Assembly: GCA_041393275.1 (NCBI GenBank)
Contig: JAWKKL010000001.1
Span: 65,927 to 129,926 of the forward strand
Direction: 5' to 3'
DNA: 64,000 nt
From: Bacteroidales bacterium
Lineage (GTDB): Bacteria; Bacteroidota; Bacteroidia; Bacteroidales; JAADJA01
Both the position numbers and the translations under genes were made by a program. A model generated the notes under the pieces. That model was not told the origin of the DNA and ran no database searches. It saw only the letters and a list, made by a program, of their open reading frames with translations. Below are positions 35,833-52,220 of this stretch, piece after piece (positions within the stretch are counted from its first letter, which is position 1; each line of letters begins with the position of its first letter).

Positions 35833-38727
35833 ATGAAAAAAACATACATTGTCATACTTTGCATGCTTATGCCTTTTCTGGTAATGTCGCAAAAATTCGA
35901 CAACAGCCAGATTACAAGCATGGTGGTAAAATTTAGACAAGACCCAAAAGGGCCCTACAAGGATATTCGCTGGTTTTGTAAAGATGGAACTACCCGGCCG
36001 CCTCAGGAACGATGCCCCGAACCGGGTGTGCAACGGGCACGCTATAAAGATGAAGTTGTTTCACTGGCTAAAACCAACCATGTTTTTCTGGGTCAAATTC
36101 TCGCAACAACTGATTTCAGCGAGTTCTGGGATGAAACCAGCTATCATTCCCGGTTAAAACAATACCAGCTTGAAAAATATTTAATAAGAACAAATGATGG
36201 TTGGATTTTGCGAAAAGCACAATATTACCGGGGCGCATTTCAGGCGGAAGATGAAGAAAACTGGGGCGTTGAATTTTTTAACTGGTTGCTGGAAGATAAC
36301 AACCGGTTGAAGCAAAATTTCTTCCTCATCCGCGAAGCCGCCAAAGATATCCCACACCAGGGTGATGATAGCAAAACCCAAATGGTTCGTGCTTTATCAA
36401 AAGAAATTTCGGATAGTGTCCAATCTTTTTTAAACATACGCATCAAAATTCATGGCCAGCCTGAAGCAACTGACATACAAACGGTAAAACAGTTCAGAGA
36501 AGCAAACAAAAACAAACTTTCGGCAACCCAGCTTAAAAAGGTGGACGAACTCATTGCTAATATGGAAATCGTTTATCAGCCGGCTAACCTGAATTCGTTG
36601 AAGAAATACCTGAAAAATATTCCTAAAGAATCCGAGGTGGCTAAATCCATCCAAACCTTAACAGACCAGTATAATACTAAATCCGGGAAGGATAAAATTA
36701 TTGATCTGGCTAATAGGCTTCTACTAATCCGAGAACAAATTACAACCATCCCAAAAAGTTCCGGACGGCTTGCCTTGCTCGATATTTCATTAAAACTCGA
36801 AGAAATCCTGTTTAGGGAGATGAAATCATGGGATAGCAAAACATTGCAAGACCTGCTATCGAAAACCTATTACCTTGGCCTGGCTTCAGCCGGGTGCGGT
36901 TACATTGAAATGTGGGAATGGTCAACCATCAAATACCATTTTGAAAAGCCCATGTATGCATCAATCTCTCTTGCGGACTTGAATAATATCCTTGAGTCTT
37001 CAAGACAACTGGTCGAATGGAGTGCCGGAATGTCAAGGGGTGTTTACAAAGATGCCATTGACCTGTTCAATGGTTTTGAACCTTTAGTCTACGGTTTTAC
37101 TGATGATAGGGTCAGGTCTTCATCCTTGCTCTATTTGGGAAACTGTGTAAGTGAATTAGGAGAATTTATTTCCCATGAAGCCGATCTTTCGAACAAAGTA
37201 ATGGATATTTCGGGACAAAGCCACATCAGGGGAATCAATCCCGGTTTTGCCATGGGTGAATTGGTGGTGTTGAATGAAATAACTGAAAATACAATTATTT
37301 CCGGGGATAAAATTTATGTGTTTGACCATCCTCCCGCAGATTTAAAGCCAGTGGCCGGTATTGCCACGGTTACCGAAGGAAATATGGTTTCTCACGTTCA
37401 GCTTCTCGCCCGTAATCTTGGCATACCCAATGCAGTTGTATCGGCTGATAACCTGGAGCAACTGAAAAAATTCAACGGAAAGAAAGTGTTTTACGCTGTA
37501 TCAAACAAAGGAACGGTTATTATGAAGCCGGCTGAACAGATGACTGCTGAGGAGAAAAAGCTGTTTGAAACAAAAAAGAGAAGTGAAGAAAAAATTACGA
37601 TTCCGGTTGACCGGATGAATTTGAAACAAACCAACATGGTAAACCTACGTGATCTAAATACAAAACAATCAGGAATCCTTTGCGGGCCAAAAGCGGCCAA
37701 TCTCGGCCAGTTAAAACTCATGTTCCCCGACCATGTGGTGGAAGGTTTTGTCATTCCGTTTGGCATTTTCAGGCAGCACATGGAACAAATCATTCCCGGC
37801 AAAAAATTATCCTATTGGGAATTCCTGAATGATATTTTTATAAAGGCAATGGACATGAGTAAGCAAGGCGAATCAGAAAATGATATTGACACCTATGTGC
37901 TTGGGGAGTTGGATGTGTTGCGAAAAGAAATAAAATCCATGAGTCTCACCCCGGAATTTATTGCAGACCTTGAAAAATCCTTTATTAACATTTTAGGAAA
38001 AAAAATTGGCGATATTCCGGTATTCCTTCGCAGCGATACAAATATGGAAGACCTGAAAGATTTTACCGGGGCAGGTTTAAATCTTACCTTATTCAATGTT
38101 GTTGATAGAGAAAAAATCCTCCAGGGAATCAAGGATGTGTGGGCATCACCTTATTCAGAGCGGAGCTATAAATGGCGTCAGCGTTATTTATTAAATCCTG
38201 AAAATGTATATCCTTCTATCCTGGTCATCCCGGCTGTGGATGTTGATTATTCGGGGGTCATGATCACCAAAGGTATTGTTACCAATAACGATGACGACCT
38301 GACCATCGCCTTTAGCCGCGGAGCAGGAGGTGCGGTCGAAGGACAAGCTGCTGAATCGTACCTGCTCAAATTTGATGGGGAGAATCTCCTGTTGTCGCCT
38401 GCGAGAGAGCCTTTTTATATCAAGCTTCCGGCCAAAGGGGGAACGGATAAAACCTTTGCCACGTTTGAGAAACCTATCCTCAGTGAAAATAACTTAATGC
38501 AATTGCGTGATTTTGCCTATAGGATTAAACGCGACATGGCTAAATTACCCGATTCAAAGTCAGAAGGCCCGTTTGATATTGAATTGGGATTTAAAGACAA
38601 TAAAATCTGGTTATTTCAGATCAGACCGTTTGTTGAAAACAAGAATGCTTTAAAAACGGAGTATTTAACTTCCATAACACCGGTAATACCCGAATCGAAA
38701 TTGATAAATTTAAACACAACACTTTAA
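35833..38727 (+). CDS. Signal-peptide-bearing PEP-utiliser family protein: unknown ~440-aa N-domain, then a His swivel (mobile) domain, then a C-terminal PPDK_N-type ATP-grasp
   Basis: MKKTYIVILCMLMPFLVMSQ. Swivel domain VAGIATVTEGNMVSHVQLLARNLGIPN, with the His codon at 37393-37395. ATP-grasp motifs CGPKAANLGQL, FLRSDTNMEDLKDFTGAGL and VWASPYSERSYKWR. Confidence 0.7.
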   Translation: MKKTYIVILCMLMPFLVMSQKFDNSQITSMVVKFRQDPKGPYKDIRWFCKDGTTRPPQERCPEPGVQRARYKDEVVSLAKTNHVFLGQILATTDFSEFWDETSYHSRLKQYQLEKYLIRTNDGWILRKAQYYRGAFQAEDEENWGVEFFNWLLEDNNRLKQNFFLIREAAKDIPHQGDDSKTQMVRALSKEISDSVQSFLNIRIKIHGQPEATDIQTVKQFREANKNKLSATQLKKVDELIANMEIVYQPANLNSLKKYLKNIPKESEVAKSIQTLTDQYNTKSGKDKIIDLANRLLLIREQITTIPKSSGRLALLDISLKLEEILFREMKSWDSKTLQDLLSKTYYLGLASAGCGYIEMWEWSTIKYHFEKPMYASISLADLNNILESSRQLVEWSAGMSRGVYKDAIDLFNGFEPLVYGFTDDRVRSSSLLYLGNCVSELGEFISHEADLSNKVMDISGQSHIRGINPGFAMGELVVLNEITENTIISGDKIYVFDHPPADLKPVAGIATVTEGNMVSHVQLLARNLGIPNAVVSADNLEQLKKFNGKKVFYAVSNKGTVIMKPAEQMTAEEKKLFETKKRSEEKITIPVDRMNLKQTNMVNLRDLNTKQSGILCGPKAANLGQLKLMFPDHVVEGFVIPFGIFRQHMEQIIPGKKLSYWEFLNDIFIKAMDMSKQGESENDIDTYVLGELDVLRKEIKSMSLTPEFIADLEKSFINILGKKIGDIPVFLRSDTNMEDLKDFTGAGLNLTLFNVVDREKILQGIKDVWASPYSERSYKWRQRYLLNPENVYPSILVIPAVDVDYSGVMITKGIVTNNDDDLTIAFSRGAGGAVEGQAAESYLLKFDGENLLLSPAREPFYIKLPAKGGTDKTFATFEKPILSENNLMQLRDFAYRIKRDMAKLPDSKSEGPFDIELGFKDNKIWLFQIRPFVENKNALKTEYLTSITPVIPESKLINLNTTL

Positions 38728-38731
38728 ATAC

Positions 38732-39988
38732 ATGAAAAAGCTAAAGTTTCTATTGCTTTCACTCCTAATTTTTGCTCTTCAGGGAGAATCTTTTGCCTAT
38801 CCCTACGACGGTTACTATATCTCCGGTATACGGCGGTTGGTCCGGCTACAGTTAATTATGATGGGTGCAATCAAAGATACAAAACCTGTTTTGGGCGCTC
38901 AGAAATCCATTATGGACATTCATCTGAATCTGATGAACGAAAAAGGCGATAGCCTTGAAGCTTTTCCAGCGACCGATCCAGCCTTACAAAAATCAATAAA
39001 CGCTCTTTTCCCATACATGCATGAAAGTTATTCGCTTTGTGTAATTGATATTACGTCGGGCAAACCTATCCGGTATGCACAGCGAAATGAAAAACGGGGC
39101 TATATGCCAGGCAGCGTAGCAAAACTTGCTGTGCTTGCAGGATTATTTAACGAACTTCAAAAGCTTTATCCCGATTCGTTTGAATTGAGGCAGCAAGCAA
39201 TGAGAAACAGGTTGGTTAGGGCCGGTAAATGGGCCAACTATGATGAACATACCGTACCATTTTTTAATCCGGAAACACAAAAATTTTACAAAGCCGTTGT
39301 CAAAGAAGGAGACACTTGTTCGCTTTACGAATGGGCCGACCATATGATCTCCGTAAGTAACAATGCAGCTGCCAGCATAGTTTGGAAAGAAGCGCTGCTT
39401 ATGCAGGCATTTGGGGCAAATTATCCACCAACAACTGAAGAAGAAGCTGAGTTTTTTAGTACCACGCCAAAATCAGAACTAACGGCAATGGCCGTGGCGG
39501 TTGTTGATGAACCGCTAAGAAATATGGGGATCACCAAGGAGGAGTTCAGGCTGGGAAGTATGTTTACTCGTGACGCCAAAAAAATCGTTCCGGGCGCCGG
39601 TGGTACCATCGCCAGCCCTTATGGATTGATGAAATACCTTGTAGCCATGGAAAGAGGAAAAATTGTTGACCCTGAATCAAGCCTTGAAATCAAACGGCTG
39701 ATGTATGCCACCGACCGCCGGATACGGTATGCCGCCTCTACTGCCCTGACCGATGCCGCCGTTTATTTTAAATCGGGTAGTTTGTATAAATGCAAACCGG
39801 AAGAGGATTTTAAATGTGGAAAATATATGGGTAATGTAGAAAACTATATGAACTCGGTAGCGATTGTCGAACAACCCGACGGGACAACCTACATGGTCAC
39901 CATGATGTCGAATGTCCTGAAAAAAAATTCAGCTAATGATCATTTTGCCCTGGCTTCTCAGATTGATAAAGTGGTAAGAAAAAAGTGA
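38732..39988 (+). CDS. Exported class-A beta-lactamase-fold serine hydrolase (function unknown)
   Basis: Signal peptide MKKLKFLLLSLLIFALQGESFA. The motifs SVAK (SxxK), SVSNN (SxN) and KSGS (KTG-like) occur in the right order. It starts 4 nt after the upstream gene. Confidence 0.65.
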   Translation: MKKLKFLLLSLLIFALQGESFAYPYDGYYISGIRRLVRLQLIMMGAIKDTKPVLGAQKSIMDIHLNLMNEKGDSLEAFPATDPALQKSINALFPYMHESYSLCVIDITSGKPIRYAQRNEKRGYMPGSVAKLAVLAGLFNELQKLYPDSFELRQQAMRNRLVRAGKWANYDEHTVPFFNPETQKFYKAVVKEGDTCSLYEWADHMISVSNNAAASIVWKEALLMQAFGANYPPTTEEEAEFFSTTPKSELTAMAVAVVDEPLRNMGITKEEFRLGSMFTRDAKKIVPGAGGTIASPYGLMKYLVAMERGKIVDPESSLEIKRLMYATDRRIRYAASTALTDAAVYFKSGSLYKCKPEEDFKCGKYMGNVENYMNSVAIVEQPDGTTYMVTMMSNVLKKNSANDHFALASQIDKVVRKK

Positions 39989-40017: not shown

Positions 40018-41184
40018 ATGAGGCAGGACATTTTCATCGGTTTCTTTGATTTATTTATTTTTCTGGGCGTATTTCAGGGAATATTTCTAGCCTGGTTTTT
40101 TATCAAGAATGGCAAAAGTGAGCAACGCGCCAATTTATATCAGGGCCTGCTCTTGTTATTTTTAAGTCTTGGAATATTTGAGGAATTGCTTAACAATACA
40201 GGGTATATTGTTCAAATGTTGCCAATTTCAAACTTTACCGAACCCCTGGCTTTAGCTTTTGCTCCACTTGTCTACTTGTATATTATTAAATCTCTAAATC
40301 CTGACAAAAATGAAAAGGTTTGGCCACATTTTATACTTTCAGTATTCTGGTTGTTTTATATGTATTTTTATTGGGCTCAGGCTAATGATCTAAAGTATAA
40401 TTCCTATATCGGCTCCAAACATCCTGATTGGGAATTCCTTGATGTTGTGCCAAAAATGGACGAGGATCCATTAGGGATAAGGTATTATTTCAATGAAATG
40501 CTGGCCGTCCAATTTATAATTTACATTAGAGTTTCAATGGTTAAGTTGTTACGAAAATTCAGATCACTGAACCAACAGTTGTTTAATACTAAAAATGAGT
40601 TATTAATCACGTTACGTAATACAATTATTCATTTTATTATCATCATTTCTGTATTTCTTATAACCAAACTTTATTTTGGAATGAGGAGTGATATTGGTGG
40701 TTATTGGATTGCAACCTATATTTCATTTATGATCTATGTAACAAGTTATCAGGTTTTAAACAGGTCTGAGTTTTTTAATCATCCAAGTTCTTTTATGGCT
40801 TTCCCTATGCCTAAATATCAAAAATCTTCTCTGTCGGAAGATAATAAGGAATTGATTTTATCCAAAATCAAAAAAGAGATGGAAAGTCGAACTTATTTTT
40901 CAAATAATTTAGCTTCACTTTCAGGGTTGGCAAAACAAATTAATGAGTCATCACATCATGTATCACAGGTAATAAATGAAAAACTAAACAAGAATTTTTT
41001 TGAATTGCTGGCCGAATACAGAGTGGAATACGCACAAAAGCTTATCAGGGAAGACAAAGAAATAAAACTGACCGTGGAAGAGCTGGCGGAAATGGTCGGA
41101 TATAATTCAAAATCGTCTTTCAATACTGCATTTAAAAAAATAACTTCCTTAACACCCACCGAATATAGAAAATCAATATGTTGA
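40018..41184 (+). CDS. AraC-family transcriptional regulator with an N-terminal multi-TM domain
   Basis: 388 aa. The C-terminal HTH region is LAKQINESSHHVSQVINEKL...VGYNSKSSFNTAFKKITSLTPTEYRK. Confidence 0.75.
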   Translation: MRQDIFIGFFDLFIFLGVFQGIFLAWFFIKNGKSEQRANLYQGLLLLFLSLGIFEELLNNTGYIVQMLPISNFTEPLALAFAPLVYLYIIKSLNPDKNEKVWPHFILSVFWLFYMYFYWAQANDLKYNSYIGSKHPDWEFLDVVPKMDEDPLGIRYYFNEMLAVQFIIYIRVSMVKLLRKFRSLNQQLFNTKNELLITLRNTIIHFIIIISVFLITKLYFGMRSDIGGYWIATYISFMIYVTSYQVLNRSEFFNHPSSFMAFPMPKYQKSSLSEDNKELILSKIKKEMESRTYFSNNLASLSGLAKQINESSHHVSQVINEKLNKNFFELLAEYRVEYAQKLIREDKEIKLTVEELAEMVGYNSKSSFNTAFKKITSLTPTEYRKSIC

Positions 41185-41320
41185 TCTTAGTAATTGATAA
41201 TCTTTCTCTTAATCAAATTATAATGTTCTTCCCGATAAGGCCGTACATCGTTCCGATAGGCTAAGTCGTTGCAATTGGCCAAGTGATATTAGGTTTGCCA
41301 GAAATTCAAATCATAATATC

Positions 41321-42550
41321 ATGACAACGGAAAAAATTCAGAAAACAGATCAGAAATCAGAACGTCAATATTACATTGATTGGTTACGTATACTTCTTAT
41401 TTTTAGTGTATTTCTTTTCCATATTGGAATGATTTTTAATTCCTGGGGCTGGCACGTGAAAAATGATGTGACTGCAGGTTCAAAAGGAGTTTTATGGTAC
41501 ATTATGGTCTTTATGCACGAGTGGCGTATGCCATTGCTGATCCTGATATCTGGTGCCGGTACTTATTTTGCCTTGGGTAAACGAACATCCTGGCAATACC
41601 TCGGTGAACGATTTAAACGACTTTTCATACCCTTGTTAGTTGGTGTATTTACGTTAGTTCCTGTTCAGGTATACATTGAGAAATCGGCTCAATTTGGTTC
41701 TTTGATGGAATTTTATCCACATATGTTTGAAGGAATATACCCAAAGGGTAATTTCAGCTGGCATCACTTGTGGTTTATTGCTTATTTATTTTTCATTGCC
41801 CTGATCATTGCCCCATTTTTAAATTTTTTCAGAAGTGGACGATTTGACCTTTTTGTTGGCAGACTGGCCAGGATCGTATCCAAAAAGTTTGGTGCAAATA
41901 TTTTTGTGGTCCCGATGCTTTTATCACAACTCCTTCTCCGTCCTTATTTTCCTGAAAATACACATGGTTTATTCGATGATTGGGCAGAAGTAATGTACTT
42001 TTTGATATTTTTCCTTTCGGGATTCATATTGCTTTCAAACAATAAGATAACTGAATCAATAAGGAAACAAAAATGGTTTTTTTTAGTGGAAGCATTAATC
42101 ACAACCGTTGTACTGGTAACTGTTCCATATATGATAGGTGAAAAAGCCGGCAACCTGCTTTGGGATACCCTGGAACCCTTTGTTGCCTTTTCGTGCGGAC
42201 TGACAGCCATCGGTTTTGCAAAACAATATTTGACCAAAAACAACAAACTTCGTAAACTTGCCAATGAAGCTATTTACCCGTTCTATTTATTGCATCAACC
42301 GTTGATCGTTGTGGTTGGTTATTATATGGTGCAATGGAATATATCTGTTTTTGCGAAAGTACTTTTTATCACCCTCACATCCTTTACCCTAACTGTTGCA
42401 ATCTATTGGTATCTGATCAGACCGTATAATGCCTTGAGGATAATATTCGGGATGAAAATGAACAGGATAGAAAAGGGGGACGAAATACATGGTTTGTCTC
42501 CTTCCCCTGTATCCCTGCTGCAAAATAAAAACATAATCCTGAAAAAGTAA
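41321..42550 (+). CDS. Acyltransferase family 3 (OpgC-like) integral membrane protein
   Basis: 409 aa. YYIDWLRILLIFSVFLFHIGMIF plus about 10 TM helices. Confidence 0.7.
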   Translation: MTTEKIQKTDQKSERQYYIDWLRILLIFSVFLFHIGMIFNSWGWHVKNDVTAGSKGVLWYIMVFMHEWRMPLLILISGAGTYFALGKRTSWQYLGERFKRLFIPLLVGVFTLVPVQVYIEKSAQFGSLMEFYPHMFEGIYPKGNFSWHHLWFIAYLFFIALIIAPFLNFFRSGRFDLFVGRLARIVSKKFGANIFVVPMLLSQLLLRPYFPENTHGLFDDWAEVMYFLIFFLSGFILLSNNKITESIRKQKWFFLVEALITTVVLVTVPYMIGEKAGNLLWDTLEPFVAFSCGLTAIGFAKQYLTKNNKLRKLANEAIYPFYLLHQPLIVVVGYYMVQWNISVFAKVLFITLTSFTLTVAIYWYLIRPYNALRIIFGMKMNRIEKGDEIHGLSPSPVSLLQNKNIILKK

Positions 42551-45397
42551 TTATGTTTTCAACAGCTCAAACAAAGCTTGCTTTGCAAAATTTTCGATCT
42601 TGGGATTTTTATTATTTGTAAAATTAGCAACAAGTGGAATATACTTTTTATCTTTAATTTGAGCAATCAAATAAAGGGTCGCTAAATTTATTTTTACATC
42701 ATGACCGGAAAGCAACATCGAAAGACACTGAAATTCATCCGGTATTTTCAGGTTCAGGTTTTTAATGGCCTCCTCCGAAAGTGTATCCAGCAGTGCTGTT
42801 TCAACAATGGGAACCAACACCCTCTTTAAATTGGTCTCTAACAGGTTGTCTAAAAACTCTACAGCATTTATGCGCATTTCCGGCTTTTTACTTTGTATTC
42901 CCTGGTAAATATTTAAAATATCATCAAAGGGATATTTTAATCCCAACAATCTAAAAATCCGTTCCAGGTTTCCATCCAGCCGACGTTCCAACAGTACGAT
43001 CAAACTTTTTCGAGCCTCAAGTTCTTTTTCGTTTTGCTCCACACCGAAGTTTTTTTCCTCTATATCCTTTACTGTGGATTGGGTATAAAGTGCGGTTAAT
43101 GTTTCAAGATACAAATGGGCTTCATCCAAAATCCGCCTGATCACATCCTTTTGATGGAAGCGAAGATTAGGGTGGTTAATTTTCAATGTATTCAACGAAC
43201 GGAGAGCTTCCATGCGAAGGCCGATATCAGGATGATCGAGCAAAGAAAATAACAGTTCGACCGATTGCTGTGTCCCAATTTGTTCTAAAATGGAAGGAAC
43301 ATGATGCAATAGTTCAATGCCCCATAAATCTTTTTGGATGATTTCAGCAAAATTTTCAACAATGGCCGGACCATAATTTACAAGCGCCATTTTAGCCGAT
43401 GTCCTGAATTCTTCCTGGATAAGAAAATCAGATAAACAATCGATGAATTCAGGACTTAAGGTATTTCCAGCTGATATGATAGCCTGATTTACGATGTCCG
43501 GGTCTTCATCCTTCATGAAGTTTTTGATCTCAATATAAAAAATAGCGATATTAGCTTGTGCAATCGCTTTTAGAATAATCTTTTTTCTGAATTTGATTTC
43601 CTCAGGATCTTTTAACCCAGCCAGGCTATTTATCCTTTTTTCGATGAGTTTTTCAAGGTCAAATTTATTCCTGAGATCAGGATTATTCCGTGATTCAAGG
43701 GCGAGGCTTACAAGGGCAGCACCCCGCACCCTGTAATCTTTATCATGAAGATATTTTGTCAAAAATTCTACCCGGTTTTCGGGAACATGAGCAATGAGGT
43801 ATTCAAAAGCCGCTGATTTTACTTGTTGATTCGGGTCATTGATCAAAAGTAAGACGCTATCTACACTATGTTGATTTCTGAAAAAATACAAACATTGTAG
43901 TGCTTCCGCACGGATGTCAGCCGATGCATGGTCAAGCAATTTGCTCACATCATCAAATAATCTGTCATCAGGGAATTCTTTTATTTTGCGCAGGATGTAT
44001 ATAATTTGAGTCTCAGTTCCCTTCTGCAATACTTTCCGCAGTCCGCTCAGGACAGATTCTTTTGATAAATCCAGCGAGCCTTTTTTCTCATGGTTTCCTT
44101 TTGTTTGTTCAATTTTTAATTTAAACGACCGCACATACTCAAACCGGATTTTTCGTGAAAAATATATCCAAACAAAGAAAAGGGCAAGAATTATAAGGCT
44201 GATAAAGCGGGTGGAAAGATCAAGCCCGTTCACCACAAAAATAAGGATTATCCCGCTAATTCCTGTGGCCGCGCTATCAATAAAAACATCAATAAAACTT
44301 TTTGTTTGGTTTTTAATCTCAAGGGGTATCGGAAGGGCCATAAGCTCAATGGCTGATTTATTTACCGATTGTTTCAGGCTCCCATCTATAAGTTTTAAAA
44401 TAATAACAGCCCAAAGTTCAGGAAAAATCAAAACGAGAAATGCCCCTAGCATGATGCCGAATGGAAGAAAAAAAAGCGATGTGCCTACGCCAAATACACC
44501 TACAATCCTTCGTGTTATAAAAAGCTGAATGATAAGTGAAATGAGGTTAAAGGTCGAAAACCAAAACCCAAAGAAGGCGGTCAAATCATCGGAGTTGGGA
44601 ATTTTTAATGAAGCGATGGCACTGAACTGATAGTCGACAAGCTTTGCGACGATGACACTGATCCCAATTATGGTCGCCAGGTAAGTCAGGTGTTTCGATT
44701 TTCTGATGAGGGCGATGGGGTTAGAATCAAATCCCTTAATCCGTTTTTTGCGTTGAAATTTTGTTTGCGTTGGTAAAACCTCTTTTTTCCATATGGTTTG
44801 TGTAATCGGAATACAAAATGAAAGTAAGATTGCCGCCACAAAAGGGAGGGTTTCGCTACCGATTTGTTCGGCAATGAGCGATGTAAGGTAACCCCCGAAT
44901 ATGCCTCCTGCAATTGCCCCGGCTCCAATAAATCCGAAAAGACGTTTGGCTTCCCTGGCATTAAAAACAATGTTTGCAAGTACCCAAAATTGAGAAGCTG
45001 ATAGTACCGCAAAAATGGCCACCCATATATAAAACAGGTATAAAACCCAGCCCTCAAGGAAATTAAGCCGTAACAATACCCCAAAAACAAAAAGACTCGT
45101 AACAGACCACAGCATGGTTCGTGTAATGATGATGTTAAGGGGCATACGTGATAATAACCTGGAATATAACAATGAAACCAAACCAGCAAAAACAGCAACA
45201 AGTAAAAAAGCATTGGGCAGGTTTTCGGCTCCCATTTTGGCAAGGAACAATCCGTTGACAGCGGGTTTGACTATGAGAAGTGTGGAAATGATCAGGAAGA
45301 TGTTCAATTGCATCAATACTGCACGGCGGTACTCTCCCTCCCGAATATCAAATACATTCCTGAGCAAATGCTCTGCATATTTTTTGATGGTCTCCAT
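42551..45397 (-). CDS. TLC/AAA-family nucleotide (ATP/ADP) translocase-like membrane domain fused to a ~500-aa HEAT-repeat domain
   Basis: 948 aa. FWVLANIVFNAREAKRLFGFIGAGAIAGGIFGG matches the TLC hallmark (FW..AN....EAKR.Y). There are about 11-12 TM helices. C-terminal repeats include LLDHASADIRAEAL, LHDKDYRVRGAAL and LLDHPDIGLRMEAL. Confidence 0.65.
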   Translation of the reverse strand: METIKKYAEHLLRNVFDIREGEYRRAVLMQLNIFLIISTLLIVKPAVNGLFLAKMGAENLPNAFLLVAVFAGLVSLLYSRLLSRMPLNIIITRTMLWSVTSLFVFGVLLRLNFLEGWVLYLFYIWVAIFAVLSASQFWVLANIVFNAREAKRLFGFIGAGAIAGGIFGGYLTSLIAEQIGSETLPFVAAILLSFCIPITQTIWKKEVLPTQTKFQRKKRIKGFDSNPIALIRKSKHLTYLATIIGISVIVAKLVDYQFSAIASLKIPNSDDLTAFFGFWFSTFNLISLIIQLFITRRIVGVFGVGTSLFFLPFGIMLGAFLVLIFPELWAVIILKLIDGSLKQSVNKSAIELMALPIPLEIKNQTKSFIDVFIDSAATGISGIILIFVVNGLDLSTRFISLIILALFFVWIYFSRKIRFEYVRSFKLKIEQTKGNHEKKGSLDLSKESVLSGLRKVLQKGTETQIIYILRKIKEFPDDRLFDDVSKLLDHASADIRAEALQCLYFFRNQHSVDSVLLLINDPNQQVKSAAFEYLIAHVPENRVEFLTKYLHDKDYRVRGAALVSLALESRNNPDLRNKFDLEKLIEKRINSLAGLKDPEEIKFRKKIILKAIAQANIAIFYIEIKNFMKDEDPDIVNQAIISAGNTLSPEFIDCLSDFLIQEEFRTSAKMALVNYGPAIVENFAEIIQKDLWGIELLHHVPSILEQIGTQQSVELLFSLLDHPDIGLRMEALRSLNTLKINHPNLRFHQKDVIRRILDEAHLYLETLTALYTQSTVKDIEEKNFGVEQNEKELEARKSLIVLLERRLDGNLERIFRLLGLKYPFDDILNIYQGIQSKKPEMRINAVEFLDNLLETNLKRVLVPIVETALLDTLSEEAIKNLNLKIPDEFQCLSMLLSGHDVKINLATLYLIAQIKDKKYIPLVANFTNNKNPKIENFAKQALFELLKT

Positions 45398-45468
45398 TTA
45401 CAGGCCTGACTTTGACTTGGCTAAGTTACGAAAAGAATACAGAGAATAAATTCCAGGAAAGGCAGCTT

Positions 45469-46386
45469 TTAATTCTTCAGCACCAGTTCGATTTTGGTGA
45501 CCAGTTCGCGGCATATTTTTTCACCCTCCGCATCTTCGATGAGCGTAACCAGGATATACCTTCTTCCGTCAGGTCCCCAAACAAGAACCGAATCCGTATG
45601 AAAATTTTGCCAGGTTCCCGATTTCCTGAATATTTTTGCCCTTGGGGCCACCTTGTCAAGTGTATTTACAAATTTATGATGCAGCTCTGGATCAACCATC
45701 ATATCAAGCATGATTTTCGACCGTTCAGGACTTACCAGTTTTCCGTAGGCAAGCATATAATAATACCTGCAAACCTGCGAAACAGTGGCTGCATGGCTAA
45801 GCCCTTTCATTGGCTCCGGATACCGTTCGCCATATTTGGCATAACGTTTTCCTACCCATAAACCACCGCCATAATCTTCGTCGTACAGGTCATATTTTGG
45901 GTCGGTTAAAACACTTTCAATCTTTTCGTATCCTAACCTGTCAATCATTCGGGTAGAGGCTGCATTATCAGATTTGCTGATCATTAATCGTAAATCATTT
46001 CTTATTTCATCGGATTCTTCCATTTCTCCTTTTTCAATGGCATCTTCAGCGGCCAATAAAACGGCAATTTTTGGCAGGCTGGCAGCATACATCATTACAT
46101 TCCCATTTACTCTTGCATATTTTACATTTTCAGGATCGCGCAAGTCCACAAGGCCCACCGCCATTTTTTTTTGTTCAATCAATCGTTTCCACTTTTTATT
46201 TTTATTTAATTCAGTAATTAACTTTTCCTGAAAGGGTAAATCAACAAGATTCCTGAGGGGTTTGATATCGGAAATAGCGAGTGGAAGTGTATCAAAATTT
46301 GGTTTGATCTCATCACTTTTTTGTGTACAGCCTGTAGTTCCAAAAAGAATTAGCAAAACAATGGAAATCAGTAATTTGTTTTTCAT
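45469..46386 (-). CDS. Lipoprotein with a class-A beta-lactamase fold (serine hydrolase, function unknown)
   Basis: Lipobox LFGTTGC. SLPK (SxxK), SKSDN (SDN) and KSGT (KTG-like). It lies upstream of, and probably in one operon with, the TLC::HEAT gene. Confidence 0.65.
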   Translation of the reverse strand: MKNKLLISIVLLILFGTTGCTQKSDEIKPNFDTLPLAISDIKPLRNLVDLPFQEKLITELNKNKKWKRLIEQKKMAVGLVDLRDPENVKYARVNGNVMMYAASLPKIAVLLAAEDAIEKGEMEESDEIRNDLRLMISKSDNAASTRMIDRLGYEKIESVLTDPKYDLYDEDYGGGLWVGKRYAKYGERYPEPMKGLSHAATVSQVCRYYYMLAYGKLVSPERSKIMLDMMVDPELHHKFVNTLDKVAPRAKIFRKSGTWQNFHTDSVLVWGPDGRRYILVTLIEDAEGEKICRELVTKIELVLKN

Positions 46387-46666: not shown

Positions 46667-47728
46667 ATGAATCTACTTGATGGTGTTAAATCAGCTGAAA
46701 TCAGAATAACAAAAGAAGTACAAGCCCTGAGTGATTTGGTGAAGGATACCACCCTGTCTGTAGTTGACCGGATTGAATCCTTTGAAGATATCATGAATAT
46801 GGAAATCGGTGATACGTCTTTACACAGGGCCCGCAACCTTGAAAGAGAATTAAATATCCGCCAGTTGTATATAAAATATGAAGGTGAAAATCCTTCAGGC
46901 ACGCAAAAGGACAGAATTGCCTTTGCTCAGGTTCACGATGCTTTCCGCAGAAATTATGAAATTATATCCCTGGCCACATGCGGAAACTACGGCGTAGCCG
47001 TTGCTTATGCCGCTCATCTGGCCGGATTGAAGTGCAAAATATTTATTCCTGAATCGTATCATACAGAGCGCATAAAAGAGATGGAACATTTTAATGCGGA
47101 AATCATTCGGCTGTCCGGTTCGTATGAAGACATAGTTACTGAATCAAGCCGGCTTGCTTACGCCAATGAATGGTACGATGCAAATCCGGGGGGGGCAAAT
47201 ACACCACTGCAAATTTCAGCCTATGCCGAAATTGCCAATGAAATTTATGACCAGTTGCGCGATGCCCCAAAATATATTGCAGCACCGGTTTCAAACGGAA
47301 CCTTACTGGCTGGCGTTTATCGTGGGTTTGTGAGCCTTTATAAACGAGGAAAAACATCAAGGATACCAAAATTTATTGCGGGTTCGGCTGCTTTTAAAAA
47401 TCCTATCATTACATCTTTTAAAGCAGGTCTTGAGGAATGTAAAGATATTGACCCAAAACAAATAAAAGAAACAGCCATTAACGAACCATTGATCAATTGG
47501 CATAGCTTTGATGGCGATGAGGCCCTTTACGCCATCCGACAATCAGATGGGGAAGCACACCACATTAGCGATAAGAAAATGCGTGAAATGAGTTCTTTTT
47601 TATTAAAAAAAGAAGGCTACAGAATATTACCGGCTTCCACTTCAGGCTTAATTGCCCTGCTTGAAATGCATGAAAAAAAAGAAATGATAAATGACAGATA
47701 TGTGGCTATATTAACAGGAAGAAGATAA
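46667..47728 (+). CDS. Fold-type II PLP-dependent enzyme (threonine synthase / cysteine synthase-like)
   Basis: 353 aa. The PLP-lysine context is YEGENPSGTQKDRIAF. The glycine-rich loop is APVSNGTLLAG. Confidence 0.7.
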   Translation: MNLLDGVKSAEIRITKEVQALSDLVKDTTLSVVDRIESFEDIMNMEIGDTSLHRARNLERELNIRQLYIKYEGENPSGTQKDRIAFAQVHDAFRRNYEIISLATCGNYGVAVAYAAHLAGLKCKIFIPESYHTERIKEMEHFNAEIIRLSGSYEDIVTESSRLAYANEWYDANPGGANTPLQISAYAEIANEIYDQLRDAPKYIAAPVSNGTLLAGVYRGFVSLYKRGKTSRIPKFIAGSAAFKNPIITSFKAGLEECKDIDPKQIKETAINEPLINWHSFDGDEALYAIRQSDGEAHHISDKKMREMSSFLLKKEGYRILPASTSGLIALLEMHEKKEMINDRYVAILTGRR

Positions 47729-47730
47729 AC

Positions 47731-48804
47731 ATGGAAACAAAAAAAATAACAACAGTATATTGCGAGGGGGCATACAACACAACCAATGGCAAAACCGCGC
47801 ATGGATTAGTTCGCTTAACAGAAAGATATGATATCCAGTCGGTAATAGATTCCCGTTATGCAGGCCAGGATGCGGGCATGGCACTGGATGGAAAAAATAA
47901 TGGTATTCCCATTGTTGGCTCTTTAGAAGAAGCGATGAAAGTGAATGACAACAAAAAACCATCCCATTTTGTTGTGGGCCTGGCCCCCGATGGCGGGAGA
48001 TTGGATAAGGCCGCAAGGCAGGATGTAAAAGCTGCCATCAAATTGGGCTTAAGCGTTGATTCGGGTTTACACGATTACCTGACCGATGACCCGGAAGTTA
48101 TGAAATTGGCCACTGAGGCTAATGTTCATATACATGATATTAGAAAACCTGCGGCAGTTAAAGACCTCCACTTTTTTACAGGAAATATAGAAAAAGTTAA
48201 AGCTTTAAAAATAGCCGTTTTAGGAACTGATTCAGCCGTTGGTAAAAGAACCACTGCATGGCGGGTTGTATTCGGCTTCAGGGAGGCCGGTTACAAGGCT
48301 GAGTTGATTGGTACCGGCCAGACAGCCTGGCTTCAGGGAGCCAAATATAGCATGGTGATGGACTCAGTGGTCAATGATTTTGTTTCAGGCGAAATTGAAC
48401 ATGCCGTTTATTCATGCTGGGAAAATGAAAAACCCGACGTGATTGTGCTGGAAGGTCAGGGAAGTTTGATGAACCCGGCCTATCCCGGAGGATTTGAATT
48501 ATTAGCCGCCGGCCGGCCAGATATAGTAATCCTTCAACATGCCCCGGCAAGGCTTGAATACGATGGATTTCCCGGTTACCCACTACATCCCATTGATCAC
48601 CAGATCCGTGCTATTGAAGTCCTCTCGGGGAAAAAAGTAGTAGCCATTACGGTAAATCACGAAGACTTAAGAGCTGACCAGATTGATGAAGTCTGCCGGA
48701 GAATTGAAGCTGAAACCGGCCTCCCGACGACTGATGTCTTAGTTCATGGTCAGGAAAAACTTATAAAAGCATTACTCCCTTATTTAAAAATAAAACAGCA
48801 TTAG
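47731..48804 (+). CDS. DUF1611-family protein (DgcN-like)
   Basis: 357 aa. KIAVLGTDSAVGKRTTA and VLEGQGSLMNPAYPG are typical of DUF1611. It starts 2 nt after the PLP gene. Confidence 0.6.
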   Translation: METKKITTVYCEGAYNTTNGKTAHGLVRLTERYDIQSVIDSRYAGQDAGMALDGKNNGIPIVGSLEEAMKVNDNKKPSHFVVGLAPDGGRLDKAARQDVKAAIKLGLSVDSGLHDYLTDDPEVMKLATEANVHIHDIRKPAAVKDLHFFTGNIEKVKALKIAVLGTDSAVGKRTTAWRVVFGFREAGYKAELIGTGQTAWLQGAKYSMVMDSVVNDFVSGEIEHAVYSCWENEKPDVIVLEGQGSLMNPAYPGGFELLAAGRPDIVILQHAPARLEYDGFPGYPLHPIDHQIRAIEVLSGKKVVAITVNHEDLRADQIDEVCRRIEAETGLPTTDVLVHGQEKLIKALLPYLKIKQH

Positions 48805-48808
48805 AAGT

Positions 48809-51157
48809 ATGAAAGAAATTGAATCCGATTATAACAGCGATTCGCTGGCCGTTCTTGAGGTCATTGATGAGTTGGTCGTCGGGCCGGTAGAACTTTTGCC
48901 AAATAAGCTCTCTATGCCCTATACAGTAGTGATTGGGAGTGAGAGATCAACATATAACCTTGAGTATAAATATGAAGAGGATGTATTTGAAGCGAATGAT
49001 GGCGGGCATCAGAACCTGGCTTCGCTGGTGGGGGCACAAGTGGCCCTCAATTATGGCCTGTTTTGCAAAAAAATTCGGTTTATTGGCTTATTTGATAATA
49101 CGGATAAACGCTTCATTGCTGATATGATGGAGAATACATCACGTGAGATCTATGTCGTGAAACTTCTGCACCCGAACCCTTTTCTTATAGGCGATGCCTT
49201 GAATCTACCCCTTATTAAGCAAAAAAAATATACCCGTGCACAATTAGAGTTTGAAGGAACTGGCTCAATAAATAAAGTGAAATGGCAGTTTTGGGAAACG
49301 GACAAGATCAAACATTGTATTTTATCCAGCGGAGGAAAAGATAGTTTACTGAGCTATGGCCTGATCAATGAAATTGGAAAAGAAACCCATCCTATTTTTG
49401 TTAATGAATCTGGTAGACATTGGTTTACAGCGCTAAACAGCTTTAGGCATTTTAAACAAAACGTGCCCAACACAGCCCGGGTATGGACCAACAGCGACCG
49501 TTTGTTCAACTGGATGTTAAGGCATTTGTCTTTCATTCGGAAGGATTTTAATACCATCCGTGCTGATGACTACCCCATTCGTCTCTGGACTGTTGCTGTT
49601 TTTTTATTTGGTGTTTTACCCATAATGAAAAAAAGGGGAATCAGTCGTTTACTGATCGGCGATGAATATGATTCTTCCCAAAAGAGAAGTTTCAACGGAA
49701 TTACACATTATTCCGGCTACTACGATCAAAGCAAATATTTTGATGAAGCCATGAGCCGGTTTTATTTTAAAAAAGGGTGGGCCGTAAGCCAGTTTTCAAT
49801 TTTGCGCCCAATTTCCGAATTGCTGATTCAAAAAATACTAACCAAACGCTATCCCGAAATCCAGCAACACCAGGTATCATGTCATGCAAGCCATCAAAAG
49901 GAAGAGCGGATTTATCCGTGTGGTAAATGCGAAAAATGCCGACGCATCGTAGGCATTTTAAAAGCGGTGGATGAAGATGCCACGCGCTGCGGTTTTTCAA
50001 AGGAACAGATAGAATATTGCCTGAAAGAATTAGAAAATAAAAATGTAAAACAAATCGGTGAAGACGCCCGGCAGCTTTATTTTATGCTCAATCAAAAAGG
50101 GCTTATCAAAAAGGAAGGTGTTTTAAAGGGTAATCCTGAAACTTTAATGCTCCGTTTCGATAATGAGCGTTCACCGATCAACGCCATACCCACGGACTTG
50201 CGTAAGAAAATTTACAACATTTTCCTTGCTTACTCCGATGGAGCGGTAATTAAAAAAGGAAGCAATTGGGAAGATTTTGATGTGTTGAATGATCCTGTAA
50301 CAGAAATTTATTATCCTTTTGAACATGATCCGGCTGTGGCTGAAAAGTTTGCTACCGAAGGTATTCAGGAAATTCAGTCGAAATATTTATGGGCTGAACT
50401 AACCTGGCCCGAAGCCGAGGAAAAATTAAGCACTGTTGATGTAGCTATTTTACCGGTTGGTGCCATTGAACAACATGGCCCCCACTTACCACTGGATGTT
50501 GATTCGTTTGACGCAGACTATTTAGCCCGGCGTGTAGCCGAAGCTTGCAGCGATCCAAAACCGCTGGTTTTGCCTCTTATACCTTATGGCGTATCCTATC
50601 ATCACAATGACTTTAAGGGTACGATCAGCATATCAAATGATGCACTAGCAAAGCTGGTATATGAAGTGGGTCTCAGTCTTGCCCGGAATGGCATTAAAAA
50701 GCTGCTTATCATCAATGGACATGGCGACAATAAACCGACCTTGCAATATGCTGCTCAAATGATTAACCAGGATGCGAGGATTTTTACTTGTGTGGATACG
50801 GGTGAAACCTCTGACTTTGATATTGATAAAATCACTGAAACGATCAATGATGTTCATGCAGGCGAAGTTGAAACAAGCACCAGCCTGGCAACTCGCTCAC
50901 ACCTGGTGAAAATGGATTTGGCCGTTTCCAGCATACCACAGTTTACGACAAGGTATTTGAATTTTTCATCGGTTCGTGGATTACCATGGTATGCATATAC
51001 CAAAAAGTTTTCGGAAACAGGCGTCATGGGCGATCCCACCAAAGCAACAGCAGAAAAGGGGGAAAAAATATGGGAAATGATGATCGCTCACCTCGTGGTT
51101 TTAGTGGAGGATCTTAAAAGACTTTCATTGGAGGAAATATTTCAAAAAGGGTATTAA
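48809..51157 (+). CDS. Fusion protein: unknown N-domain, then a PP-loop ATP-pyrophosphatase-like domain, then a C-terminal creatininase-family metal amidohydrolase
   Basis: 782 aa. PP-loop SGGKDS at nt 49328-49345. Cys cluster YPCGKCEKCRR. Creatininase motifs LPVGAIEQHGPHLPLDVD, IINGHGDN and HAGEVETS (about nt 50380-51154). Confidence 0.65.
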   Translation: MKEIESDYNSDSLAVLEVIDELVVGPVELLPNKLSMPYTVVIGSERSTYNLEYKYEEDVFEANDGGHQNLASLVGAQVALNYGLFCKKIRFIGLFDNTDKRFIADMMENTSREIYVVKLLHPNPFLIGDALNLPLIKQKKYTRAQLEFEGTGSINKVKWQFWETDKIKHCILSSGGKDSLLSYGLINEIGKETHPIFVNESGRHWFTALNSFRHFKQNVPNTARVWTNSDRLFNWMLRHLSFIRKDFNTIRADDYPIRLWTVAVFLFGVLPIMKKRGISRLLIGDEYDSSQKRSFNGITHYSGYYDQSKYFDEAMSRFYFKKGWAVSQFSILRPISELLIQKILTKRYPEIQQHQVSCHASHQKEERIYPCGKCEKCRRIVGILKAVDEDATRCGFSKEQIEYCLKELENKNVKQIGEDARQLYFMLNQKGLIKKEGVLKGNPETLMLRFDNERSPINAIPTDLRKKIYNIFLAYSDGAVIKKGSNWEDFDVLNDPVTEIYYPFEHDPAVAEKFATEGIQEIQSKYLWAELTWPEAEEKLSTVDVAILPVGAIEQHGPHLPLDVDSFDADYLARRVAEACSDPKPLVLPLIPYGVSYHHNDFKGTISISNDALAKLVYEVGLSLARNGIKKLLIINGHGDNKPTLQYAAQMINQDARIFTCVDTGETSDFDIDKITETINDVHAGEVETSTSLATRSHLVKMDLAVSSIPQFTTRYLNFSSVRGLPWYAYTKKFSETGVMGDPTKATAEKGEKIWEMMIAHLVVLVEDLKRLSLEEIFQKGY

Positions 51158-51158
51158 T

Positions 51159-52220
51159 ATGAAAATTACAGGGATTGAATTTTGGGAAGTCAGGATGAAA
51201 CTGGCGGTGCCTTACACCATCGCTTACGAAACGTTTGACTCGGCCGTAAATGTCTTTTTAAGGTTAAAAACAAATTCAGGAATTACCGGTTTTGGTTGCG
51301 GGGCCCCGGCCCCTGAAGTTACGGGGGAAACAGAAAAAGATGTCCTTGAAAAAACAAATCGGGTGGTCGAACCATTTTTAAAAAATACTGATCCTCTTCG
51401 GCTTTCTTTTCTCATCGAAAAACTCAAACCTGAATTAAAAGGCTATCCGGCCACCCAGGCGATGGTTGATGCGGCTCTTTGGGATATCATGGCAAAAAAA
51501 GCAGATATTCCTTTATATAAACTGCTTGGTGGTTTCCGCGACCGCATGAAAACGAGCATCACCATTGGTATCATGCCTGTTTCAGAAACGGTGGTTAATG
51601 CGAACGATTTTATTAGACAGGGATTTAAAGTACTTAAAATAAAAGGAGGAATTGATGTTAATGAAGACATCGAACGCGTCGTTAAAACACGTGAGACTGT
51701 GGGAACCTCCATCGAAATCCGTTTTGATGCCAACCAGGGATATAGCCTGGAGGATACAATCCTGTTTGTGAATGAAACAAAAAAAGTAAAAGTTGAATTG
51801 CTCGAACAACCTACACCTTATGATGAACTTGAAAAAATGGCACAGGTAACCAGCAAAGTTTCAATTCCTATTATGGCAGATGAAAGCCTGCAAAACCTGC
51901 GGGATGTGTTCAACATAGCCAGACGTAACCAGGCCGATATGATCAACATCAAGATCATGAAAGTAGGGGGTATTTATGAAGCCATACACATCAATTCGGT
52001 TGCCCGATCTGCCGGCATCGAAGCAATGGTGGGTTGTATGGATGAATCGGCCCTGGGTATTTCTGCCGGGTTGGCATTTGCTCTCAGCCGACCCAATGTC
52101 CATTATGCCGATCTTGATGGCCACCTCGATTTAATTGGCGATCCGGCCCAAGGAGCTGTCATTTTAAAAGATGGAATTTTATATCCTTCGGCTAAACCGG
52201 GATTGGGAATTGAATTGTAA
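51159..52220 (+). CDS. Enolase-superfamily (MLE subgroup) dipeptide epimerase
   Basis: 353 aa. KIKGG (KxK), metal ligands in FDANQGY / LEQP / MADES, a second Lys in NIKIMKVGG, and a DLD (DxD) motif near the C-terminus. Confidence 0.8.
   Translation: MKITGIEFWEVRMKLAVPYTIAYETFDSAVNVFLRLKTNSGITGFGCGAPAPEVTGETEKDVLEKTNRVVEPFLKNTDPLRLSFLIEKLKPELKGYPATQAMVDAALWDIMAKKADIPLYKLLGGFRDRMKTSITIGIMPVSETVVNANDFIRQGFKVLKIKGGIDVNEDIERVVKTRETVGTSIEIRFDANQGYSLEDTILFVNETKKVKVELLEQPTPYDELEKMAQVTSKVSIPIMADESLQNLRDVFNIARRNQADMINIKIMKVGGIYEAIHINSVARSAGIEAMVGCMDESALGISAGLAFALSRPNVHYADLDGHLDLIGDPAQGAVILKDGILYPSAKPGLGIEL

Follow-up and report, generated by a model that had tools for sequence, protein, structure and literature searches.

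Carriers of the nucleotide transporter (NTT) family, TLC in Pfam, are textbook markers of energy parasitism, and structures of two of them, AtNTT1 of plastids and the chlamydial NTT1 of C. pneumoniae (CpNTT1), both ATP/ADP translocators, were reportedly described by Lin et al. (2025, Nature 641:797, as referenced in PMC13176400). Both proteins bring ATP into an energy-dependent compartment, and the solved proteins (PDB 9j3j, 9j3l and 9j3m; 9j3n and 9j3o, respectively) have no HEAT domain. NTT carriers fused to HEAT repeats have also been published, by Major, Embley & Williams (2017, Genome Biol Evol 9:480; PMC5381601), as a single clade that occurs widely in free-living bacteria and has no known function, 43 Bacteroidetes sequences being among the fusions studied. 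Here, a 64,000-nucleotide stretch of a Bacteroidales genome (the window; GCA_041393275.1, contig JAWKKL010000001.1, positions 65,927 to 129,926) was analysed, in which a 948-residue carrier of this NTT-HEAT clade is encoded next to an exported serine enzyme of 305 residues, referred to below as the hydrolase. The carrier shares with the published clade the N-terminal NTT/TLC domain and the C-terminal HEAT repeats (PF13646 and PF02985). However, the published account reports a cyclic-nucleotide (cNMP)-binding partner or fusion, which is true of part of the clade, and mentions neither exported hydrolases nor a dikinase (PMC5381601), whereas three exported partners are a fixed feature of the group of carriers studied here; a cNMP-binding domain was neither fused to the carrier nor present among the recurrent gene families of the 81 loci compared. 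A literature search found no paper on this set of genes, on NTT-HEAT function or on an exported dikinase. An earlier, sequence-only reading of this DNA had called the role of such a carrier unclear, which was fair, although the fusion was already in print and the operon described there is one half of a four-gene module.

To begin with, the neighbourhood of the carrier was compared with 80 related loci, whose carriers were 46-78% identical and which came from Bacteroidales, Marinilabiliales, Saprospiraceae, Flavobacteriaceae, Cyclobacteriaceae, Ignavibacteriales and Rhodothermales. Clustering of the open reading frames of the 81 loci gave exactly four recurrent families around the carrier: the carrier itself, the 305-residue hydrolase, a 418-residue paralogue and a 964-residue dikinase. 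Of the 70 loci with enough flanking sequence, 69 had the hydrolase immediately upstream of the carrier in the same orientation, at a median gap of 76 nucleotides; the sequence-only reading had staked itself on this pairing being kept in relatives, as it is. Moreover, of 68 informative loci, 60 had the 418-residue paralogue convergent with the carrier and just downstream of it, and four more had it farther off. Of 56 informative loci, 52 had the dikinase at most 10 kb from the carrier, and for the other four it was encoded elsewhere in the same genome (4/4). Among 300 evenly sampled Bacteroidota genomes, the carrier, the dikinase and the hydrolase had strong orthologues in an identical set of seven, in six of which the dikinase was on the same contig, a few kb from the carrier-hydrolase pair. 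The four module genes strictly co-occur and adjoin one another, and chance as the origin of the adjacency of carrier and hydrolase is ruled out by the 69/70 pairing together with the 7/300 co-occurrence.

The identity of the carrier was established by sequence and by fold. Pfam assigned it to TLC (PF03219; TC 2.A.12) with 36.9 bits over residues 113-421 (cut-off 21), and a whole-genome profile scan gave 30.2 bits, again above the cut-off, while no MFS family was matched at E <= 0.01; HEAT_2 and HEAT scored 74.1 bits (cut-off 27.7) and 40.9 bits, respectively. The only membrane proteins among its PDB sequence matches were AtNTT1 and CpNTT1. These two also took ranks 1-5 (E 8.9e-9 to 4.1e-6) when its AlphaFold2 model (predicted local distance difference test score, pLDDT, 79.9) was searched with Foldseek, the best match being 9j3m (E 8.9e-9, TM score 0.77 on the target, root-mean-square deviation 3.4 A) and the first generic MFS match being NorA (E 7.9e-6). 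Profile-profile alignment with plant NTTs in hhalign reached a probability of 95% over residues 112-418. Furthermore, the TLC hallmark FW..AN....EAK[RK], which had been spotted in the sequence-only reading, is present after helix 4 at residues 135-152 (SQFWVLANIVFNAREAKR), where it aligns with LFWGFANQITTVDEAKK of AtNTT1 and is unchanged across 20 homologues. Because NTT structures top both the sequence and the fold searches ahead of generic MFS proteins, the carrier belongs to TLC, as had been proposed; within the NTT-HEAT clade it most likely serves as a solute carrier of the inner membrane. A generic MFS identity is ruled out by the Pfam result (TLC, no MFS) and by the Foldseek order. At least 1962 homologues were found, under names such as 'Npt1/Npt2 family nucleotide transporter', 'AAA family ATP:ADP antiporter' and 'HEAT repeat domain-containing protein', and the family comprised 2028 representatives of 50%-identity clusters at E <= 1e-30. 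The layout of an NTT domain followed by C-terminal HEAT repeats was seen in all 120 homologues listed and in the 150 best cluster representatives.

Where about 11-12 membrane helices had first been counted, hydropathy and the AlphaFold2 model agreed on 12, arranged as 6+6. Lysine and arginine residues numbered six at the N-terminus, three in loop 4-5, 11 in the central loop (residues 203-235) and five in loop 10-11, with a basic tail after helix 12, and the positive-inside rule was obeyed at every loop. Both termini are predicted from this charge pattern to be cytoplasmic and, both being inside, the HEAT domain would face the cytoplasm as well, which settles by topology prediction the side that had been left to be found. 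The HEAT-like repeats read earlier in the translation (LLDHASADIRAEAL, LHDKDYRVRGAAL and LLDHPDIGLRMEAL) belong to a domain of about 500 residues confirmed by the HEAT_2 score, all-helical in the model over residues 447-947 (pLDDT mostly 80-93) and matched by profile in the PDB by alphaRep HEAT proteins. This domain equals the membrane domain in size and is strongly conserved, especially in its last ~150 residues, with the invariant columns clustering at residues 796-866.

The 305-residue protein encoded upstream scored 70.7 bits for PF13354 (Beta-lactamase2; cut-off 22), and all that had been read from its sequence and position is present: the same strand, the 71-nucleotide gap, the lipobox LFGTTGC (residues 14-20) and the motifs SxxK, SDN and KSG (S103-L-P-K106, S139-D-N141 and K255-S-G257). 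The SxxK, SxN and KSG motifs were invariant in 68 orthologues. A signal peptide was found in all orthologues, with the lipobox cysteine in close relatives only and, in distant ones, a type I signal often followed by Gln at +1. No terminator-like site was found on the minus strand in the spacer 45398-45468, and the hydrolase and carrier genes are probably co-transcribed. In the Foldseek search of its AlphaFold2 model (pLDDT 83.3), the best matches were PBP-A (Tll2115) of Thermosynechococcus elongatus (2j9o, E 2.3e-10), BlaB of Streptomyces cacaoi and class A enzymes. The nearest structure is, in other words, a penicillin-binding protein (PBP), to which the 305-residue protein is similar in fold, while its sequence similarity to class A and PBP-A entries of the PDB was marginal (E 0.005-0.03). 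Moreover, the NCBIfam model bla_class_A (NF033103) gave 19 bits where 200 are required. The omega-loop region (residues 173-196) is highly conserved (GGGLWVGKRY...), unlike that of known enzymes, was modelled with a pLDDT below 50 and holds no clear equivalent of the general base Glu166; the title of entry 2j9o, an L158E mutant, suggests that PBP-A carries Leu where Glu166 would sit. A true class A beta-lactamase was discarded on the bla_class_A score and the want of a clear Glu166; from its motifs and signals, the protein is best described as a putative acyl-serine enzyme, exported and PBP-like, and not as a beta-lactamase.

The other two partners also bear the marks of export. In the 418-residue paralogue, a signal peptide precedes a conserved start, YP.DGY..GIRRL, and SxxK, SxN and KSG are retained together with two conserved cysteines (YKCKPEEDFKCGKY); a sequence search of the PDB gave no useful match for it. 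The dikinase consists of an N-terminal domain of unknown type, a phospho-histidine swivel domain and a C-terminal ATP-grasp domain, scoring 90.9 bits for PPDK_N and 21.1 bits for PEP-utilizers, slightly below the cut-off of 23.1. Conserved in it are the motif of the catalytic histidine (His521), VSHvQLLARNLGIP, and those of the ATP-grasp domain; Cys49 and Cys61, close to the mature N-terminus, form an invariant pair, and 52 orthologues have a signal peptide with Gln at +1. The cysteine pairs of the dikinase and the 418-residue protein are compatible with disulfides outside the cytoplasm. The signal peptides of the three partners were conserved in 52-68 orthologues each, many of them fitting the Q-rule of Bacteroidetes signal peptides (PMC5837995). 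Judging from these signals and the intact catalytic motifs, the three partners look exported and appear to be active.

Table 1. Features of the four-gene module and of the genes inserted in it (positions within the window)
Feature	Position	Strand	Description and basis
TLC/NTT-HEAT carrier gene	42551..45397	-	948-residue open reading frame; Pfam TLC + HEAT_2
Carrier membrane domain, residues 1-425	44123..45397	-	12 helices; hydropathy, lysine/arginine counts, AlphaFold2, Foldseek, hhalign
Carrier HEAT/armadillo-like solenoid, residues 447-948	42554..44059	-	Predicted cytoplasmic; Pfam, PDB profile matches, AlphaFold2
Hydrolase-carrier spacer	45398..45468	-	71 nucleotides; probably co-transcribed
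Putative exported PBP-A/class-A beta-lactamase-fold serine enzyme	45469..46386	-	305 residues; Pfam, motifs, Foldseek, signal peptide
Second putative exported beta-lactamase-fold protein (paralogue)	38732..39988	+	418 residues; PF13354 41.1 bits; module member
Putative exported dikinase-type enzyme	35833..38727	+	964 residues; Pfam PPDK_N; module member
Two inserted genes, membrane AraC-type regulator and Acyl_transf_3 (MdoC-like)	40018..42550	+	Not module members

A working model can be proposed in which the carrier would be the sole cytoplasmic-membrane component of a four-gene envelope module. It would exchange an adenine nucleotide between cytoplasm and periplasm, so that ATP leaves while the spent AMP or ADP plus phosphate returns, and the exported dikinase would use the nucleoside triphosphate supplied in this way to charge its catalytic histidine in the periplasm. 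The HEAT solenoid would probably gate or regulate the carrier from the cytoplasm. In this model, we infer that a nucleotide is carried, that this nucleotide is ATP, which way it moves and what the HEAT domain does. A carrier that feeds the exported dikinase as a nucleotide exchanger is the reading that we tentatively prefer, at a confidence that falls somewhat short of even. The wider proposal, that free-living diderms export ATP or another nucleoside triphosphate through an NTT-HEAT carrier, with the dikinase phosphorylating an envelope substrate on which the two PBP-like enzymes also act, is more doubtful. In plastids, glucan and phosphoglucan water dikinases are supplied with ATP by the plastid NTT. 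Starch phosphorylation there offers an analogy only, in that the compartment of a dikinase, one whose histidine domain precedes a C-terminal ATP-grasp domain, obtains its ATP by way of a carrier of the NTT family; unlike in the plastid, the compartment here would be the periplasm, and the set includes two PBP-like enzymes. Periplasmic ATP transport in some prokaryotes was argued from two old reports in a hypothesis paper of 2014, in which no gene was named (PMC4289276).

Confidence in the exchanger is held below even because the residues for ADP and ATP binding are gone, the hydrolase is the closest partner and the contexts of other clades are unrelated. Several observations weigh against it. 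In AtNTT1, mutagenesis found the charged residues K155, E245, E385 and K527 to be needed for binding and transport, with K155 serving ADP binding, E245 translocation and K527 the binding of ATP and nucleoside triphosphates (PMC4256464, PMC3306366). After the numbering was checked on the Arabidopsis sequence, these positions were mapped by hhalign and by an independent MAFFT alignment, which concurred that E245 is replaced by A127 and K527 by T378 and that E385 corresponds to D255; K155, outside the hhalign region, corresponded to F64 by MAFFT and a manual match of helix 2. These three replacements are invariant or nearly so across the carrier family, and only E385 is retained, as D255. The term 'nucleotide translocase' used in the sequence-only reading consequently stands as regards the TLC family but goes beyond the evidence as a label, three of the four key AtNTT1 residues being lost. 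Moreover, the identity of the carrier to the solved NTTs is about 18%, and in an unrooted maximum-likelihood tree, in which the canonical sequences were AtNTT1, two plant NTTs and one CpNTT1 fragment, these clustered on their own (100/100), set off by a branch of seven changes per column. The 25 module-type carriers also formed one group (100/100), beside a second HEAT-fused subfamily (84/86) and apart from the canonical NTTs; the phylogenetic placement that had been called for thus grouped the carrier with HEAT-fused proteins and not with characterised ones. Because of the long branch and the low identity, the substrate cannot be transferred from characterised NTTs, and NTT substrates cannot be read from sequence in any case (PMC4256464). 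Finally, the tightest partner of the carrier is the hydrolase, not the dikinase, and other NTT-HEAT clades occur in unrelated contexts, the pairing with an exported ATP-user not being clade-wide. The broader idea that all NTT-HEAT subfamilies adjoin exported ATP-users did not hold up, given that heterogeneity.

On the side of transport as such, several charged residues are shared between AtNTT1 and the carrier (R134 with K44, K492 with K342, E501 with E351, K516 with K366 and D520 with D370), together with the EAK[RK] motif, and the shared charged residues of the carrier and NTTs fall in helices 1, 7, 10 and 11. The carrier family has invariant polar membrane residues of its own as well (Q30, K252, Q257, D338, Q343, N346, K347 and D374).

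These family-specific residues, and the fixed uncharged replacements of K155, E245 and K527, fit a different cargo. The carrier may move another anionic or nucleotide-like solute belonging to the chemistry of the exported enzymes, either importing what they make (a phosphorylated compound from the dikinase, for instance, or a fragment freed by the two serine enzymes) or exporting a nucleotide-linked precursor, in which case the module would be a processing-and-transport pathway and not an ATP supply line. The closeness of the hydrolase, in 69 of 70 loci and across a spacer of about 76 nucleotides, is the usual picture for an enzyme whose product is moved by the neighbouring transporter, and an operon for amino-acid or dipeptide conversion adjoins the module in 8-11 of the 81 loci, in several families. 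Furthermore, the substrates of characterised NTTs are varied and include nicotinamide adenine dinucleotide, according to references cited in PMC5381601. However, this explanation would leave the exported dikinase without a source of nucleoside triphosphate, as no second transporter is conserved nearby in the 81 loci, and the data name no candidate solute. We regard it as possible but doubtful.

The genome in which the carrier is found bears on a further alternative. It is a 3.27-Mb metagenome-assembled genome (MAG), 63% complete and Bacteroidales-like, whose only TLC gene in the whole-genome profile scan was the one described here. It encodes purC, purH and ATP-synthase-type genes, in keeping with the free-living-type chromosome suspected from the sequence, and a host that supplies its own purines and ATP is no energy parasite; classical energy parasitism was rejected for this genome on the strength of these genes, with the caveat that the MAG is only 63% complete. 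In this the carrier differs from AtNTT1 and CpNTT1, the ATP of its host being synthesised at home. A nucleotide importer used for scavenging, which would bring in whole the extracellular nucleotides that enter the periplasm, with the exported enzymes as mere neighbours of separate cell-wall function, would agree with every characterised NTT being an importer of nucleotides (PMC5381601; bioRxiv 10.64898/2026.03.31.715626) and with sister clades in Bacteroidota and Zixibacteria that lie beside Metallophos and Omp85-type genes, which fits envelope handling of nucleotides or phosphoesters. Against such a role stand the de novo purine synthesis of the host, the loss of the AtNTT1 nucleotide-binding residues, and the fixed arrangement and shared set of 7/300 genomes, which speak against independent functions, and it appears improbable. 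The least likely alternative, and an improbable one in its own right, is a 'transceptor', a sensor or scaffold in the membrane that has lost transport and that would pass, through its HEAT domain, an envelope signal generated by the PBP-like enzymes to cytoplasmic partners: it would suit the large and strongly conserved HEAT domain with its most conserved last 150 residues, the cNMP-binding and response-regulator genes that follow the carrier, or the adenylate cyclase beside it, in other clades, and the presence of BlaB, presumably a regulatory protein, among the closest structural relatives of the 305-residue protein, but residues of the translocation path are retained (K342, E351, K366, D370, D255 and the EAKR motif) and signalling genes are not conserved around the carriers of this clade in the 81 loci.

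The locus supplies one NTT-HEAT clade with a testable context, namely three fixed exported partners, one of them dependent on a nucleoside triphosphate. If the carrier feeds the dikinase, the periplasm would not be free of ATP, which bears on how envelope processes are energised, and ATP-driven chemistry would take place in a supposedly ATP-free compartment thanks to a relative of parasite ATP importers working in the reverse physiological direction. If another solute is carried, as the lost ATP-binding lysine allows, the module would be an undescribed envelope pathway around two PBP-like enzymes. The module was found in the cultivable species Flavilitoribacter nigricans, Labilibaculum filiforme, L. 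manganireducens and Sunxiuqinia indica, which opens both readings to ordinary genetics and biochemistry.

Some variation was observed in the arrangement of the module. In the window, its two halves are split by a 2.5-kb insertion of two genes, an AraC-type regulator and an acyltransferase, homologues of which were found in 0 of the 80 related loci; both were excluded as members of the system on this count. The stop codon of the acyltransferase gene (42548-42550) abuts that of the carrier gene on the opposite strand (42551-42553). Elsewhere, some Saprospiraceae MAGs had two carrier-hydrolase pairs (loci L022 and L026 in one MAG, L050 and L051 in another), while L027 and L040 had the pair alone, with the dikinase elsewhere in the genome. 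No dikinase was found in a plasmid collection, where the carrier gave one weak match, in Runella.

The operon that flanks the hydrolase side of the module (46667-52220 in the window) encodes a pyridoxal phosphate (PLP) enzyme, a DUF1611 protein, a PP-loop-creatininase protein and an epimerase. It was found at L002, L003, L026, L027, L038, L046, L047, L075, L076 and L078, neighbours that span Bacteroidales, Saprospiraceae and Flavobacteriaceae, and its adjacency could reflect either old synteny or a functional tie to D-amino-acid or dipeptide metabolism.

Other contexts were seen around more distant carriers. The four-gene module was not found in the Zixibacteria, Acidobacteriota and Calditrichae loci, the gene context of the Calditrichae carrier being uninformative, and cNMP-binding genes adjoined NTT-HEAT genes of other clades at L088, L098 and L100. 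In a second NTT-HEAT subfamily of about 30% identity (L082, 7971-14861; L083, L084 and L085), the carrier gene was followed by those of an Omp85-superfamily protein, an unknown lipoprotein of about 560 residues and a Metallophos phosphoesterase that appears exported on a crude signal-peptide prediction. In a Zixibacteria MAG (L098, 2330-10835), the same triad of Omp85, unknown-protein and Metallophos genes preceded the carrier, and genes for a HEAT-less TLC protein, a cNMP-binding protein and a response regulator were also present. In a contig from Acidobacteriota (L100, 6571-14063), the NTT-HEAT gene was followed by cNMP-binding and response-regulator genes and then by the polyphosphate kinase gene PPK2, with a second such gene, PPK1, on the opposite strand. 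Finally, very distant HEAT-fused relatives of about 1060-1090 residues (L091, 7986-16047; L095, 1281-9458) lay beside genes for a TIR/DUF4062 protein and for an nSTAND1-WD40 NTPase, neighbours suggestive of signalling or defence.

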